Source: Fistulifera solaris
Lineage: Eukaryota
Direction of reading: 5' to 3'
Assembly (NCBI GenBank): GCA_030295235.1
Contig: AP026164.1
Location: 2,232,001 to 2,296,000 of the forward strand
DNA: 64,000 nucleotides
This document shows, one piece after another, positions 16,931 through 26,483 of the stretch. A program made the translations under genes and the position numbers. Under the pieces are notes generated by a model. It was not told where the DNA came from and ran no database searches. It saw only the letters and a program-made list of their open reading frames with translations. How positions within the stretch are numbered: position 1 is the first letter of the stretch; every line of letters begins with the position of its first letter.

Positions 16931-18518
16931 TTACTTCACATACTCCCAGTTGTTCACCATTATCTTGGACACACATTGCAAAGCGTGACGCTGCAATTCC
17001 GCATTCTCGTGTTCAATCAGTGTCATGACCAGATCTTTAGCTCCCAATCGCTTCACAATGGCTCGCCCGTTGGGATAGTGACGAACAAATTCACCAATGT
17101 CAAAACACGCAATGGCGGCGACTTCTTCATCGCGATTGCTCAACAAAGCAATCAGCACTTTGAGTAAACGAAAATCACCATCACTTCCTTCCATCATCCG
17201 GGCGTTCTCTTTGAAAAAGGCTTCCGTGTGACACGAGCCCCATTGCAAGTGACCCGATTCCACTTCATTCTTGTACACTTCCCAACGGCTCATTTCTTTG
17301 TAATTCTCATGCAGCAATTTGTGCAACAACTGAATGTCTTCCGCCAGGTCCGGATCGGTGAATTGTCGATCACGCAAATGATCCACCGCCTTGATGAGAC
17401 CGCACGCAATCATTTCTGAAAGAAAGAATTTCCCATCCATCTTGGGTGCTCCATTGGCCGGTGCGGGCTCATTCTCATCAACCGTACAGAGTGCCAAATT
17501 GCGGAGGGACGCCAAGGCGACACGAACGACCTTTTCGCGCGGTGCCACCGCGATCAAATCGACCAACGCCGATACCGCCAAACTATCCTTGGCGAAATCG
17601 TGTCGAATAGCCGACGAATGATTGAGTTCGTAGGTCAAAATCCACATACAAAAGGCAATTTCGTAAAGTTGCTGCACCGACGCCATTTTCTTCTTGTCGA
17701 GCGGTGATTTGTTCCCAATGCGCAATTGACGAGCCATGTATTTGATGCCCCCCGACTTGCAAAGAGGACCCGGGTCTCGTGGGCATCCACGAGCACTTTC
17801 AACGCCGGCGAACAACTTCCCACCAACGGACCGGTCGCATTTTTGAGTTGCGAAATGACCCACGCCGTAATGGCTTCCAATGGTTCTACAGCTGAAGCGT
17901 ATTGAATCGGTCGGGCTTTGCCATCGACACTGCGATGACGTTGACTCGGACACGCGGTGACCAACATTTGCGCGAGACACAGTGCGGCGACTTTTTGCGC
18001 AAAGGCGTCTCCTTTACCCGGCTTGTCGAGTATGCGCAAAAGCGCTTTCCACTGTTCGACGAGGATACCATCTTTGCCGACATAAAAGACGGTCGCAATG
18101 GAAACACCTTTCACTCCGACTTTGAGTGTTTGTAAAATATCCAATAACTTGGTCAACGCATAATGACACACGACACCCAATGGATCGACTGCCAAGGTCT
18201 CTAAAGCTTCTTGTTCCGTAACACCCGCCGGAGACAATTTCGAGACTTCTCCCATTCCGGCACCAGCGGCCGACGACTCGGCGACGAGTTTGAGCAAGAC
18301 ACGCGCGTACATACTCGCATCACGGGAATCCGACAAGGTATAATCCATCGGATTGGTTTCGGCCATGCGCAACAAGGCCGTTTCCTGTGCTGTGAGTTGA
18401 AGTGTCCCCAACGAGTCCCATTGAATGTGAGCGAACGCGGGGGCGACGGGGATTTGAGCGTCGCAAAGGCGGCCGATGCGACGGCTTCGCTGGGAATCGT
18501 GGTATCGGTCATTTCCAT
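16931..18518 (-). CDS. ATP6V1H: V-type H+-ATPase subunit H (frameshifts near 18415 and 17770)
   Basis: QQLYEIAFCMWILTY, REKVVRVALASLRNL, EVESGHLQWGSCHTEAFFKENA, IACFDIGEFVRHYPNGR, ALQCVSKIMVNNWEY. Confidence 0.95.
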
Positions 18519-20610: not shown

Positions 20611-22776
20611 ATGACCAGTGAAGACGCGTCTCCAAACCTGAATAGCGAGCTGCCAGATGAAGCGTCACCCACAACCGATTTCGAATTATCCAAACGGCAA
20701 AATGCCGACAAAGACGACAATGACAATCTTCCCGATAAGGACGGGGTAGAAAATCTACTCGTAGAAACATTAGAAGAAGCACCGGAACAACTACCAATGG
20801 AAAACGAAATTGTAAAGGCGAAGGAAGGTGATTTGCCTCGGGAGGAGGAGGAGGATGAAAATGGTTTGACGGATATTGAAATAGCAACACCAGAAGACGG
20901 TGTAAAGGGTAACGAGACAAGCGACGAAGAACGAGAAGACGTAACAACCAACAAACAAAGTCGGTCAGAAATTGTTTCCGAGGACGTTGAGCAAGCGGAA
21001 ACATCACCACCTGTTGTGAATACGACGAATTTGGAGACAGTCGAAACGAACACACCGTTGAGTCTCGAAGAATGTTTGTACGGTGTTTGTACGACCACCA
21101 CTCCCGACGACGACAATGACTCGCTGGTCAATGACGATTGGGTCCATATTCGAGAACCAGGATTGTGGAAGACAACACCACATACGATCGATTTGACTCT
21201 TTTGCGCAAAATTGCCTCGCAAGTGGGGATCCCCGAAGAAGGAAGTCATCGAGCAGTAGCTTGGCGTGTTCTGTTGGGGTATCTACCCGTCGACAACCGG
21301 GAATGGGAAACGACCCTGACTGAACGACGTCAGGAATACAAGACATTTGTCAAAGAGTGGTTCACCAATTCGTACGATTGTTTTCACGGGGATGAGTTGC
21401 GATGGAAACATCGTATGCCTCACAATAACTCTCGTCGTCCATCCGATGCAGATCGAGAAGAAGGAGAAGCAAGTACTCAACAACAATCCGAGTCAGGCAT
21501 CGTTGTTGAGGAAGATAACAACAAGCTTCACAGTCCTGTACGAGAACGGCTTAAAAAGGCAGGCTTGGATGCGGGCGTATTGGACTCGATTCTCAAAAAC
21601 TTCAATGCATTACAAATTTCCAAAGTCAGCGATGCCGCCACGGAACATGGAAACGTGTCGTCGGAAAACGACGAAGACTTTGTCGGCGGTGTCAAGCTAC
21701 TAGATCAAATCCGCAAAGACGTCGATCGCACCTTCCCTGACTTGAAATTTTTCTTGGATCCGGAAAGAAATTTTGGGAAGAGACGATATGCCGCATTAGA
21801 ACGAATTTTGTTCACGTGGAGCAAATTCAACAAAGGAGTCAACTATGTGCAGGGCATGAATGAAATTGTTGGTACCATCTATTATGTCCTGGCCAATGAC
21901 TGGAACGAAGAATGGGCACAAGAAGCCGAAGCGGACACGTTCTGGTTGTTTGGAATTCTGTTGGGAGATATGCATGATGTATTCATTTCTCATTTGGATA
22001 CTTCCGAGACGGGCATCTATTCTCGAATCAAAATGATGGAAACTCTTCTACGTCGACATGATGCGGAAATCATCGAACATTTCGATGACGTAGGTATCGA
22101 GAGCTCCTTTTTCGCCATACGATGGTGGACTACATTGCTTTCGCGTGAATTCTTGCTGCCCGATACCATTCGGCTATGGGATAGCATGTTTGCGTCGACC
22201 CACAAAGATAACTTTCTTTGCTATGTTTGCGTGACGATGGTAATTATGATCCGCGAACAACTACTGAAAGGAGATTTTTCAGTTTGTTTGAGAACGCTGC
22301 AATGCTATCCGTCCATAAGAATGGATAAGTTACTGACGGCGTCTCGCACTCTTTGGTTGTACGAGCGGCAAATTACGGTTGCTTGTCATAGAGGGGGGCA
22401 TCGGACTACAGCAAGCACTAGAGGCTGTGAAGCCCCGGATGCTATCATTATGGCTTTTGGCTTTCGAGGTGGTATCCTCCCGGGGTCCCAATGGGAAAGT
22501 ACAAGTCCTTCTAGAGTTGAAGCTATGCAAAAAGCTCGCGAAGCAGCTGCTGCTTCCGTTCGGGGAGCCGGTAGTGCTGTGAAAGGCTGGTTGGGACGAG
22601 CAACCAAACTCGCTAGCAATTTAGGAGACCAAGTCAAGCTTACGAGAACGGTGTCAGCCGAAAGTACGCATTCCAGCGATATTGTCTTAGATTCTTTCTC
22701 CGCTGACGAGGAAGACGATATCTATATGCAGGCAATCCAAAGTGCCGAATCGGGAAAATACTCTTACACAAAATAG
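20611..22776 (+). CDS. TBC-domain Rab GTPase-activating protein (TBC1D13-like)
   Basis: RAVAWRVLLGYLP, QIRKDVDRT (R finger), YVQGMNEI (Q finger), FFAIRWWTTLLSREFLLPDTIRLWDSMF. Confidence 0.92.
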   Translation: MTSEDASPNLNSELPDEASPTTDFELSKRQNADKDDNDNLPDKDGVENLLVETLEEAPEQLPMENEIVKAKEGDLPREEEEDENGLTDIEIATPEDGVKGNETSDEEREDVTTNKQSRSEIVSEDVEQAETSPPVVNTTNLETVETNTPLSLEECLYGVCTTTTPDDDNDSLVNDDWVHIREPGLWKTTPHTIDLTLLRKIASQVGIPEEGSHRAVAWRVLLGYLPVDNREWETTLTERRQEYKTFVKEWFTNSYDCFHGDELRWKHRMPHNNSRRPSDADREEGEASTQQQSESGIVVEEDNNKLHSPVRERLKKAGLDAGVLDSILKNFNALQISKVSDAATEHGNVSSENDEDFVGGVKLLDQIRKDVDRTFPDLKFFLDPERNFGKRRYAALERILFTWSKFNKGVNYVQGMNEIVGTIYYVLANDWNEEWAQEAEADTFWLFGILLGDMHDVFISHLDTSETGIYSRIKMMETLLRRHDAEIIEHFDDVGIESSFFAIRWWTTLLSREFLLPDTIRLWDSMFASTHKDNFLCYVCVTMVIMIREQLLKGDFSVCLRTLQCYPSIRMDKLLTASRTLWLYERQITVACHRGGHRTTASTRGCEAPDAIIMAFGFRGGILPGSQWESTSPSRVEAMQKAREAAAASVRGAGSAVKGWLGRATKLASNLGDQVKLTRTVSAESTHSSDIVLDSFSADEEDDIYMQAIQSAESGKYSYTK

Positions 22777-22802
22777 AAAATATAGTCGTGCAAGTATATC
22801 CG

Positions 22803-24237
22803 TTATACTCGTTCAGGTACGCTCTTTTGGGAATCTCCACAGTGAAGACTCCCGGGTTTCCTCGCATTCGTATCGGTTCGTTCAGCCATTGTGCTTCTAC
22901 TATTTCGGTGCAAAATTTTCCAATCCCACTAGCGGGAGCTAGTACTCTATTTTGCAAATTTTTCGAGTTGAGTTCATTTTCGTTCGCCATCCACGTTTTC
23001 CCTATCGTTACCACGCCTATCACACAGCCTCGATCATATTTTGGGCGAAGGCTACTCGCTTTTGAATTTCGTTGTTGGAGATGCCTTTTTCTTTCAAAAT
23101 GGTCTTGTAGGACTCCAGGTCATGCCAATCTTTCCGTCCACAGTGCAGAAGAAGGCGAGTTCCTGGTTTAATATCTTGGAACATTGGATTGTTGCGGCTT
23201 TCGACTGTCTTGATCCCGTTCAATAAGAGAGCAGCAAACGGCTGTGACATTGTGAAACACGGCATGGCCACCATCTCGTCTTTCGGCGCCGTCGAAGATG
23301 CTCCTCTCAGTAAAGTAGCCGAGGGGCGGCCTTGTTCATCAGTGTTCGCTTCGAAATCAACCTTGTCTCCCGTCTGCAGTTTCATACCGGAAGGAACTTT
23401 CGATTCATGCACAAAATATTCGGCACCCGTCGTTTCATCCACCACAAATCCAAAACGTTTGGTTGGTGAATAAAACTTGACTCTTCCGGAGCATTTCGTT
23501 CCAACTTGTTTCATGGGCTCTGCAATTTGCAAGTTGTTTGCGTCCAGAATATATCCCATCCAATGCTGATCATCGTGACCGGCTTTCAACTCGCTGAATT
23601 TGTGCAATGCTTTCACAAAGTGTTCGGTCGTCAGACCTCTTGGTGTGTGACAGGACATCACTCCCAACTGGGACGTTTCTCCCAAATTCATGCGAGCATC
23701 ATCGTCAAAGAAGAGCATCGAAGAATACGGGACACCCGATGCCGCACGAATAGCGGTCGAATGTTGTTTCTTACTGCCGGTTCGAATTTCAATGTACCGA
23801 AAGAAGGATCGTAACGGTGATGTACCAATGGTAAACTCGTTCAACAACTGTTCCGCCCAAGCACCTTTGCTAGTGCGACTCGCAATCGCCAATTCCACTT
23901 GGTACAACGGATGACTTGGTTCAATATCGTTGAGAAACTGAAGCACTTCTCTGCTGGCCGGAAATAAACGAATGTCTCGATTCACAACCGGTGCGGTGCG
24001 TTGTCGAATTTGGTACAGCTCAGGCGTCCACAGTGTATTGTCGAGATCAAAGATGATGACTTTCGGGACCGCTTGGAGGGATGTCAAGCTTTCAAGCGTT
24101 GTCAGAATTGTACTGGGTGTTGAGGAATGCAATCGAGTCAAACTTGGTTGTCGGAAACGATTCGTCATAGTGAAACACAGTGATTGATTGGGAAACGCGA
24201 GAAATGCCAACAACAAAAAAGCATGATAAATGGACAT
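22803..24237 (-). CDS. Fusion protein: plastid-type presequence + MDP-1-like HAD phosphatase + cold-shock domain + ASCH (EOLA1-like) domain; frameshift near 23060, exact 3' end uncertain
   Basis: HAD IIIC: IIFDLDNTLW...IASRT...LFFDD. CSD: GRVKFYSPTKRFGFV...YFVHES. ASCH: FTMSQPFAALLLNGIKTVESR...LLLHCG, and after adding one A, KYDRGCVIGVVTIG...WLNEPIRMRGNPGVFTVEIP. Confidence 0.85.
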
Positions 24238-26483
24238 GACTGTGTCTTTCGCCGGAAAACGATGCAGGAATCTGTGATCGATCACTTGAGGAGATTGCAG
24301 CACTCAATTGTTTCCGATCAGAAGCTATTCCTTTCAAGCTGATTAGCATATATCAAAAAGAAAGTGGAACATCGGATTGAAACGAAAAGTGATGGTGATG
24401 GACGCCGAGCGACGGACTTTCTTGAAGATGAGGGATAGGGATAGAAGTGTTGGTAGGAGTGAGTCGTGAATCGTGAATCGTGAATCGTGGACCATTATTG
24501 TCAATTAGTGACTGCGACAACAAACAATAAAAATAGGAAATTAGGGAATGAAATTAAGGAGGATAGTTAGCCGTTCATTCATTACTGTAAGCCGTAAGCC
24601 AAAAAACATCTCTTGCTACCCTAAGTACCAGTAATACCATAATCATATTTTTATTTACCAGTTGTATCATTTTTTTGCTTTTGTTACCGCTTTTTGCGTA
24701 ATTCGTTGTTCGACACGCGACCATAGCAAATTGTGCAAGTCGGCAATCAACGAAGTTCTGTGCTTTGAATGTTTTTTTTAATAAAAAAGATACGGCTTGG
24801 ATAGGGTCGTTTATTATTTCCAAATTAAATGTACGGAGTAGTCTATACATGAAAAAAATTCTTACAAGATTGAAATCATTCGTGAGCTGTAACAATCATT
24901 CCACCAAACAGGGGGCCAAACAGGCAATTTACAAGTACAAGGTACTCCAAGAATCACAAGCTGGGAAGCTTAGCCATTCCATGCGCCAGCGCATGCATCG
25001 ATGTACAGCTCTTCTCGTTCGAGCGGCAAAACCGGTAAAAAGACTGGCCAACAAGAATTCATTTGAACAAACAAATCATTTTAAGCAAATGGAAGAAAAC
25101 CATAGAAGCCGTCAAACTTTAAAAACTAAACAACGAAGCAATCGATTGAGTGACAAGCGAGTGATCAAAGATTGATCGGATCAAACAAAAGACCACCGGT
25201 CGAACGACTGGCTTAACAACAATCAACAGATCAGAAAAACCGTGAACTGAACTGAACATGTACCAATCGGCTCGCGTCGGAATCCTATTTGCTTGGCAAC
25301 TTTTCATGCAACTAAGCAAAGAGGGAAGTACTTGAACACAAGTAAGGCAACGAACAAGGATGATGAACACCGACAAAGATGATCGGTGCGTCAATTAAAG
25401 TGAAATATCTGCGAAAGCAGCGAATCAAAGTTGTCCGCGGCACACTAAACGAAACATAGAACCAATGTGAATGAATAGGCTCTCCTTGTGGGCATTGTGT
25501 GTGAGTGGAGTGGTGTGAGCATAGTGGGGAAAGAGCCATTTTTGACATGAACGTCTTGCATCAACGGAGAACGGTTGGATTCGATCGGAAGCCTGCTTGC
25601 TCCAAACGAACATCGTAAACGGTCGACGTAAGGTAGTGACCGGGTGGAAGGATGGACCAACCGGTAATGGATGATGACGTAGAGGAGGAGGAGCGTCAAC
25701 AACGGTCAACGACGGATAATCATCGGAATACTTTGTAGTTTGTTGGTACACTTATTTGACGTACTACAAAATTATTCATATTCGAAAAACATATTTTGTA
25801 GCTTTTAAAATTCTGAATCTATCTATATTATCTTTTTCGTTCGAAGTTTTCATGAAAGATAAAAATGAGCATGAAAATGGGAAATTTGTACGTAGAATTA
25901 TACAGTAAAAATTTTTGTGGACTCTCTGGTACATTTTTTACGAGGTGTACATGGTGTAATGACGGACGAACACCAGCTGTACAGGTACATACCTTGAACT
26001 ATGTTTTCCGAAACGATTTAATATTTAATCCTTGAAGCGTGAAGCGTGAAGTACTAAACAGTAGGGAAGTTTCTCGCTGGCAGCTGTTAGCTGTTACTTT
26101 TCATTCAAGGTAAAGTATTGATACGGGCAGAAAAAATTGATACGGGCAGATGGTTCGCATTTATCGCGGGAACTATACCAACAGAAAACACAACCGAGCG
26201 AACTGTACAGTAGAGTCTCGAATGTCGAACGTCGAAAGTCAGCCGAAAGAAAAATATTCCAATTCTCTCGATAAATACGGAGTAATCTTTAATCTTCGCA
26301 ATTTAAGGGCCTTACCAGGTACCAATACCGATCGACCCAATCGACATTCGATTCAATCGAGCTCGATAAGATTGGAGTAGAATATAGAATTACTTCGCAA
26401 ATCGTAGACTACGATACCTGGTACTTGCAAACTTTCTCGAGTCTCACCGTCGCATTTAATCTTTGACGCATTCCGCCTCAAAC

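Follow-up and report, generated by a model that had tools for sequence, protein, structure and literature searches.

MDP-1, the phosphatase family closest to one half of the protein described here, reportedly acts as a protein fructosamine-6-phosphatase in deglycation. The closest described relative of the other half is EOLA1 (CXorf40A), an ASCH-domain protein that deacetylates free N4-acetylcytidine (ac4C), the cytidine of degraded RNA re-entering salvage, and in which K21, E24 and R26 form the ac4C pocket (Relier et al., 2026; 10.64898/2026.08.01.741249). The lysine and the glutamate are essential in TthASCH, EOLA1 and TRIP4 (10.64898/2026.02.27.708502). In a single sentence the former preprint notes that ASCH domains occur fused to an S1-like domain and a HAD phosphatase, an arrangement that is very probably the one described here from the diatom Fistulifera solaris. 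The gene lies on the minus strand at 22803..24237 of a stretch of 64,000 nucleotides (hereafter the window; assembly GCA_030295235.1, contig AP026164.1, positions 2,232,001 to 2,296,000) and joins a plastid-type presequence, an MDP-1-type phosphatase domain, a cold-shock domain (CSD) and an EOLA1-type ASCH domain in a single protein.

A single gene for a three-domain protein

The coding sequence starts at the first ATG of a minus-strand open reading frame (ORF), at 24237, and ends with a TAA at 22803-22805; it measures 1435 nucleotides in the window and 1437 nucleotides with two bases that the assembly lacks, giving a product of 478 residues. A first-pass annotation, made from the letters alone, had given the frame, strand and coordinates correctly, and the motifs that it named (FDLDNTLW, ASRT, and FFDDD) and the N-terminus MSIYHAFLLLAFLAFPNQSLC|FT are all present in the translation. 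Its reading of one gene with three domains was confirmed by hidden Markov models (HMMs), profile matches and fold matches, as set out below. Among database proteins the closest match is FisN_20Lh133 (P0003, 455 residues), an annotated protein of F. solaris to which the window gene is 100% identical and which is continuous across both positions at which the frame breaks in the window. With N read at both breaks, the 478-residue product consists of 23 N-terminal residues followed by P0003 exactly, the sole differences being two X where P0003 has K. In the alignment, two relatives (P0005 and P0008) start level with the first ATG of the ORF.

As written in the window, the gene falls into three frames. 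The first ORF (405 residues, P0001) extends between the ATG at 24237 and a stop codon at 23020-23022, the second frame (P0002) carries KASSLRPKYDRGCVIGVVTIGKTW, and the last few codons sit in the third. No introns were seen in the gene, and the contigs aligned to the region had no joints. A short intron in place of a single-base indel was considered and rejected: the GT..AG candidates near the break, counted by hand, measure 27 and 39 nucleotides, multiples of three from which the frame is not restorable. The stretch 22803..24237 is one intact nuclear gene with three domains.

The phosphatase, cold-shock and ASCH domains

The MDP-1-type capless HAD phosphatase domain occupies residues 57-216 (23590..24069, minus strand). 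In the first reading frame it scored above the cut-offs of Acid_PPase (PF12689; 131.9 bits against 27, E 2.7e-38), of the NCBIfam model for MDP-1 (TIGR01685; 66.8 bits against 53.75) and of HAD-SF-IIIC (TIGR01681; 50.4 bits against 35.75). A single-sequence search matched solved MDP-1 structures at E 5.7e-16 (human MDP1, 2wm8) and 4e-14, and the Foldseek comparison with MDP-1 structures gave template modelling (TM) scores of 0.81-0.86, consistent with a capless Rossmann-like HAD fold (for 1u7p_B, E 4.9e-11, TM(target) 0.86, root-mean-square deviation [rmsd] 2.3). HAD motifs I (DxDxT), II (S/T), III (K) and IV (DD) are all present and conserved: motif I reads FDLDNTLW (24028-24051, minus strand), the other motifs read ASRT, GSKKQH and FFDDD, and among 52 aligned sequences S97, R98, T99, K133 and D156 (P0003 numbering) are invariant and at least 90% of the sequences share D41, D43, T45 and D155. 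By these comparisons the module is a phosphatase of the MDP-1 type, in HAD subfamily IIIC, and a Mg-dependent phosphomonoesterase activity is predicted for it.

The cold-shock domain follows at residues 250-308 (23314..23490, minus strand). The Pfam CSD model (PF00313) matched the first reading frame with 38.4 bits against a cut-off of 27 (E 1.2e-9), and it also matched 51 of the 52 homologues. The domain contains the segments KRFGFVV and YFVHES, which we take to be RNP1-like and RNP2-like RNA-binding motifs, respectively; in P0003 numbering G240, F241 and F252 do not vary among the 52 sequences, at least 90% of which share H254. Cold-shock proteins of known structure were matched at 2e-6 in a single-sequence search, and Foldseek placed the domain on two bacterial cold-shock proteins (5jx4_B, TM(target) 0.83; 1mjc, 0.82), consistent with a five-stranded OB-fold barrel.

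The C-terminal domain (residues 324-475 of 478; 22815..23268, minus strand) is split in the window by both single-nucleotide gaps. The first-pass annotation had called it an ASCH domain, an assignment that is borne out by profile, motif and fold, although the Pfam threshold was failed: the ASCH model (PF04266) gave 15.0-15.3 bits against a cut-off of 21.2 and covered profile positions 2-39 only, it reached E ≤ 0.1 in 20 of the 52 homologues (best value 0.0021), and the second frame alone (P0002) had no Pfam or NCBIfam match. Our own ASCH profile does match P0002, at profile positions 68-154. A profile of ten C-terminal domains matched the solved EOLA1/CXorf40A over its full length (E 1.6e-29 to 1.1e-25), with positions 3-155 of 161 aligned to EOLA1 residues 4-156 of 160, and the single F. 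solaris sequence found the same protein at E 2.2e-23 (P0003 residues 301-452 against 5-156 of 160, ~30% identity). The ASCH domain of TRIP4 matched the ten-sequence profile at 0.008 only, and YqfB had no direct sequence match at E ≤ 10 in the profile search of the PDB. The predicted fold is a PUA-like beta-barrel that Foldseek aligned with EOLA1 at TM(target) 0.87 and an rmsd of 1.9 Å (6kir) and at 0.85 (5y7d). The catalytic octapeptide GIKTVESR (GxKxxExR; 23194..23217, minus strand) can be read directly from the sequence and holds K343, E346 and R348 of the full product; these residues, K320, E323 and R325 in P0003, are invariant in 52 of 52 sequences. Because full-length homology to EOLA1, the GxKxxExR octapeptide and a superposable model fold coincide, the domain can be placed securely among the EOLA1-type ASCH domains, and the low Pfam score reflects an insensitive model and not the protein.

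Distribution of the fusion and its variants

A word-index search returned 125 relatives comparable in length, almost all of which carry the annotations Acid_PPase and CSD. The ASCH-domain profile, run against 1.84 billion representatives, matched 633 proteins at E ≤ 0.001, 186 at E ≤ 1e-10 and 72 at E ≤ 1e-30. Domain arrangements were counted in 269 gathered proteins with our own HMMs of the three domains, and Pfam agreed on the 60 proteins that were scanned with it. The order HAD-CSD-ASCH was found in 123 of the 269, plus one with a split HAD match. Sixteen of the proteins are HAD-ASCH, 14 are CSD-ASCH, and 15 have the reversed order ASCH-HAD, 11 of the latter being P0178 and the members of its single 90% cluster. 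In 80 others ASCH stands alone, many of these being plainly fragments. ORFs for the whole fusion, marked "type:complete," are present in MMETSP transcriptomes (P0037, P0041, P0090), and because these are transcript assemblies the fusion is no artefact of gene prediction.

Names were available for a small share of the matches, so that the taxa listed here imply no absence elsewhere. The named diatoms with the fusion are Fistulifera, Mayamaea, Epithemia, Amphora, Attheya, Entomoneis, Striatella, Stephanocyclus and Pseudo-nitzschia, together with a CCRYP-prefixed gene model that, from its prefix, we take to be from Cyclotella cryptica. The bolidophyte Triparma has the fusion as well, as do Prymnesium among the haptophytes and Chromera among the chromerids. 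In two pelagophytes, Aureoumbra and Pelagophyceae CCMP2097, it takes the HAD-ASCH form. In the dinoflagellates Cladocopium goreaui and Alexandrium monilatum the order is the reversed ASCH-HAD, there is no CSD, and motif I reads FDLDG and not FDLDN; this reversed form is represented by P0178, P0180, P0181, P0192, P0210 and P0255. The only named member outside the red-plastid lineages is that of the green prasinophyte Cymbomonas tetramitiformis (P0077/P0270), which sits on a very long branch (1.56) of the ASCH tree.

That tree was a quick one, of 176 ASCH domains with a midpoint root, from which 12 members of two 90% clusters, P0001, P0002, rows with more than one ASCH match and rows with fewer than 136 profile positions had been left out. 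Six ASCH-HAD rows fall on one side of a branch with a support of 94. Some HAD-ASCH rows nest among the HAD-CSD-ASCH rows and others lie elsewhere. The deep forks are weak (74), and the tree leaves unsettled whether the three arrangements had independent origins. Four further proteins (P0244, P0248, P0249 and P0234; 283-448 residues) form a tight group with an EOLA1-like ASCH domain in mid-protein or near the N-terminus (residues 9-171 in P0234) and had no Pfam match outside ASCH at 1e-4.

Proposed function

On balance, though with reserve, we think that the protein is a plastid enzyme that would take part in RNA turnover, dephosphorylating and deacylating either modified nucleotides of cytidine or RNA that is accessible to it; we infer this function, and with it where the protein resides, what it acts on and that its two activities are coupled. 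The protein would enter the plastid by means of a signal peptide and an F-initiated transit peptide, and its CSD, as an OB-fold, would keep the enzyme on single-stranded RNA or fragments thereof. The MDP-1-type HAD domain would remove a terminal or nucleotide phosphate, be it the 5' or 3' phosphate of a nucleotide or of an RNA end, and the pocket of the EOLA1-type ASCH domain would strip the N4-acetyl group (or a similar N4-acyl group) from the exposed modified cytidine. The resulting ordinary cytidine would then be salvaged or degraded further.

The fusion of an MDP-1 domain to nucleic-acid modules points to a nucleotide or RNA substrate, and that phosphatase and deacetylase are found paired in three different arrangements (HAD-CSD-ASCH, HAD-ASCH and ASCH-HAD) suggests a single pathway served by both activities. 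Of the roles that the first-pass annotation had offered (RNA end-healing, damage repair or modified-nucleotide processing), the last now appears the best founded, given the homology to EOLA1, the intact K/E/R residues and the reported deacetylation of ac4C. As the substrate of the phosphatase we would favor RNA ends or short fragments, because the MDP-1 fold is capless and because a matching substrate has been predicted in print. The prediction reads "RNA termini and degradation products" (10.64898/2026.08.01.741249).

Several points weigh against this reading. The AlphaFold2 model of the protein, built on the 52 homologues, speaks for the domain identities with a mean pLDDT (predicted local distance difference test) of 92.1, but its predicted TM score (pTM) of 0.62 is too low for the relative placement of the domains to be trusted. 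A signal-peptide core is lacking in 21 of 53 N-termini by our heuristic (see below). Capless HAD phosphatases usually take macromolecules, which suits RNA ends better than free nucleotides, and the reported role of MDP-1 itself concerns proteins, as a fructosamine-6-phosphatase. With regard to the modified base, chloroplast elongator tRNA-Met is listed with an unmodified C34, and ac4C is only "detected in rice chloroplast lysate" (PMC8877259). The presence of ac4C in plastid RNA is not established, and it is possible that the base acted upon is another N4-acyl or a damage-derived cytidine. Nor do the two EOLA1 preprints agree on structured tRNA as a substrate (10.64898/2026.08.01.741249; 10.64898/2026.02.27.708502), EOLA1 being said in the first of them to be inactive on ac4C paired in RNA stems. 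EOLA1 itself is placed in the cytosol, close to ribosomes, by one preprint and in the mitochondrial matrix by another, according to which it is required for mitochondrial translation via 12S rRNA and TUFM (10.64898/2026.01.12.699056).

A rather unlikely but serious alternative is that the protein works at the level of RNA, as an eraser and end-healing enzyme of plastid tRNA or rRNA, whether intact or nicked, in regulation or repair and not in salvage. The CSD would then bind the RNA, the ASCH domain would remove ac4C in situ and the capless HAD domain would remove a 3' or 5' end phosphate. The retention of the CSD in all but one of the 52 homologues fits this reading, as does the tendency of capless HADs toward macromolecules. 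A further point in its favor is that 19 of 19 tested ASCH proteins, EOLA1 included, lowered tRNA ac4C (10.64898/2026.02.27.708502). However, the existence of HAD-ASCH and ASCH-HAD forms without a CSD means that tethering to RNA is dispensable in some lineages, and sites of ac4C in plastid RNA, on which an eraser would act, are not established (PMC8877259).

The mitochondrial role of EOLA1 also invites the reading that the protein is a largely non-catalytic factor of organellar translation, or an RNA chaperone, that binds plastid rRNA or EF-Tu and in which the phosphatase is accessory or regulatory. The protein would be aimed at the other bacterial-type organelle, and it carries a CSD. We consider this improbable, since the 52 sequences show little or no variation in the catalytic residues of either enzyme, which argues that catalysis by both has been retained.

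Our preference stays with a plastid enzyme acting on modified cytidine during RNA turnover. If this is true, a first function would be assigned to a protein that diatoms, bolidophytes, pelagophytes, haptophytes, chromerids and dinoflagellates have in common, groups responsible for much of marine photosynthesis, and it would mean that modified cytidine is handled inside plastids, where ac4C has scarcely been looked for. A wider and more doubtful extension is that MDP-1 and EOLA1-type ASCH proteins would catalyze successive steps of a single conserved pathway for the removal of N4-acylated cytidine, as nucleotides or at RNA ends, the fusion serving as its "Rosetta stone" and the pathway being stationed in the plastid in algae. 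In that case the long-disputed substrate of stand-alone MDP-1, the human protein included, would be a nucleotide with a modification or the end of an RNA, and not a glycated protein. Were it true, the link to the ac4C salvage step of EOLA1 would be an independent clue to the role of animal MDP-1, and an undescribed pool of N4-acyl-cytidine, of enzymatic or damage-derived origin, would be implied in plastid RNA.

Predicted targeting to the plastid

The N-terminus of the 478-residue protein begins with a signal-peptide-like segment, MSIYHAFLLLAFLAFPNQSLC (residues 1-21; 24175..24237, minus strand), whose hydrophobic core reaches a hydropathy maximum of 2.49 over 11 residues. A transit-peptide-like stretch, FTMTNRFRQPSLTRLHSSTPSTILTTLESLTSLQA (residues 22-56; 24070..24174, minus strand), can be read directly behind it. 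The junction, ...QSLC|FTMTNRFRQPSLTRLHSSTPST..., is of the ASAFAP type, with a small residue, F at +1 and then an S/T-rich, net-positive stretch; by our own count residues 22-59 include 14 S/T in 38 residues, four R/K and one E. The rule for diatom plastid presequences asks for an aromatic residue at +1, within the ASAFAP motif (PMC4329603).

A set of 53 N-termini was scored with a crude hydropathy-plus-motif heuristic. A signal-peptide-like core was found in 31 of the 53, and in 26 of these 31 it is followed by a small residue and then F, W or Y, the other five having L, I or M. Of the rest, 21 have no such core and one lacks HAD motif I. P0003 owes its place among the 21 coreless N-termini solely to a gene model that begins at an internal Met, and the other coreless N-termini may likewise be due to truncated gene models. 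The likeness to a bipartite plastid signal of the diatom kind, which the first-pass annotation had pointed out, is thus upheld at the level of sequence by the F at +1, the composition of the stretch behind it and the relatives with an aromatic residue at +1, and the protein probably enters the plastid by way of a signal peptide and an F-initiated transit peptide.

There is little probability, in our view, that the same enzyme is non-stromal, its presequence delivering it to the endoplasmic reticulum, to the periplastidial compartment or to the outside. The five relatives with L, I or M at +1 would be in keeping with such a destination, as would the N-termini of Prymnesium and Chromera, which have no clear diatom motif. 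Against it stand the F at +1 and the S/T-rich, net-positive stretch of the window protein itself, as well as the aromatic +1 residue in 26 of the 31 relatives with a signal peptide, the residue on which the published rule turns (PMC4329603).

Frame breaks in the assembly

The first-pass annotation had noted a single-nucleotide indel near 23060. There is a break at that position, but it is one of two, and both are errors of the assembly. At 23060..23063 the window has T4 on the plus strand (A4 in the coding sense) where contigs of sequencing runs have T5 (A5), and at 22825..22828 it again has T4 (A4 coding) where these contigs have T5, an error that alters the last seven codons. The contigs came from four public runs of one study (X1-X4) and were aligned to the region. 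We treated the four runs as DNA, since contigs of X1 reach 24 kb and one extends well upstream of the ATG. The runs are possibly the source data of some assembly of F. solaris and hence not fully independent, with which proviso the extra T behind 23059 was found at full depth in all four (14.9/14.9, 11.9/11.9, 12.8/12.8, and 5.4/5.4) and that behind 22824 at full depth in X1 (22.5/22.5) and X3 (12.8/12.8), X2 and X4 having no cover there.

P0003 has K at the position of the first error. The corrected C-terminus reads ...EIPKKSVPERV*, an ending shared by P0003 and by two of its relatives, P0004 and P0007. In the alignment of 52 sequences the homologues are continuous across both sites, and the sequence after the breaks is conserved. 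Because run contigs, annotated protein and aligned homologues all read through, both breaks are homopolymer undercalls of the assembly and no biological frameshift. That the locus is a frameshifted pseudogene, or gives two products (a phosphatase-CSD protein ending at 23020 and a leftover ASCH fragment), as the stop at 23020-23022 and the remainder of the ASCH domain in another frame would suggest in the window as written, is scarcely credible in view of the extra base in the contigs at full depth wherever a site is covered, the continuity of P0003 and the conservation among relatives of the sequence beyond the breaks. Homopolymers are undercalled in this assembly, and its frame breaks need checking before any pseudogene call.

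Genomic surroundings

The neighbors of the gene are unrelated eukaryotic genes. A RabGAP-TBC gene (20611..22776, plus strand) converges on it with the two stop codons 26 nucleotides apart, a distance at which both transcripts necessarily meet or overlap at their 3' ends. Further along is a gene for an M43 peptidase. A gene for V-ATPase subunit H (16931..18366, minus strand) appears split over the overlapping ORFs 16931..17737 and 17635..18366; its downstream ORF matches V-ATPase_H_N from profile position 206 only, plus V-ATPase_H_C, and its upstream ORF had no Pfam match at 1e-3. This split may be a further homopolymer frame error or an intron. Upstream of the fusion gene, the bin 24001..26000, which has no long ORF, has the lowest G+C of the window in bins of 2 kb (0.408, against 0.44-0.53 in nearly all others), one other low bin being at 0.417.

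A second version of the region 22500..23230 is present in the same runs, with ~5-7 differences per 110-130 bases (e.g., 7/133). Such a version could be a homeologous copy, as would be expected if the genome is allodiploid. P0004 (89% identical at the protein level) and P0007 (86%) may be homeologous copies or proteins of close relatives.

Comparison with known systems

The first-pass annotation had known of no characterized protein with this architecture and had put the gene forward as a candidate for a new system. The latter is overstated, as the protein is a conserved multi-domain enzyme made of three known families; as to the former, no characterized member was found, but the architecture has already been mentioned in print (10.64898/2026.08.01.741249). 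The available text of that preprint does not mention the MDP-1 subfamily, plastid targeting, the taxa or the reversed order in dinoflagellates, and a word search of its main text found no occurrence of "stramenopile," "CSD" or "cold-shock." Beyond that one sentence, our literature searches returned no paper on the fusion, no characterized member of it and nothing on its plastid presequence, MDP-1 identity, algal distribution or reversed dinoflagellate form.

Among the enzymes with which the protein may be compared, the polynucleotide kinase-phosphatases of T4 and mammals offer an analogy for a putative RNA-end phosphatase: in them, too, a capless HAD phosphatase, which removes 3' phosphates from nucleic-acid ends, is joined to nucleic-acid-processing modules. 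Their phosphatase belongs to another HAD subfamily (IIIA) and is accompanied by a kinase, whereas the Fistulifera protein is of subfamily IIIC and has no kinase domain. YqfB, the N4-acetylcytidine amidohydrolase of E. coli to which the first-pass annotation had likened the ASCH domain, shares with it the ASCH fold, the K...R catalytic frame and, as would follow for the Fistulifera protein, the conversion of ac4C to cytidine. The analogy was right in spirit, that is, in the ac4C chemistry, but YqfB is a stand-alone bacterial protein of a different clade (GKTR), with T/S in place of E, while the domain described here belongs with EOLA1 and TRIP4 (GKER).

The two closest counterparts remain MDP-1 and EOLA1. 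To MDP-1 (1u7o/1u7p, mouse; 2wm8, human) the likeness lies in scores beyond the curated HMM cut-offs, in the match of folds and in the retention of motifs I-IV; the animal protein is a stand-alone one of ~165 residues, whereas the Fistulifera domain is fused to nucleic-acid modules. To EOLA1/CXorf40A (5y7d, 6kir, 9kyi) the likeness is one of full-length homology and of a GxKxxExR octapeptide with E and not T, which marks the GKER/TRIP4-like clade. EOLA1 of human and mouse stands alone with ~158 residues, whereas its counterpart in Fistulifera forms the C-terminus of a 478-residue protein that also has a phosphatase, a CSD and a plastid-type presequence.

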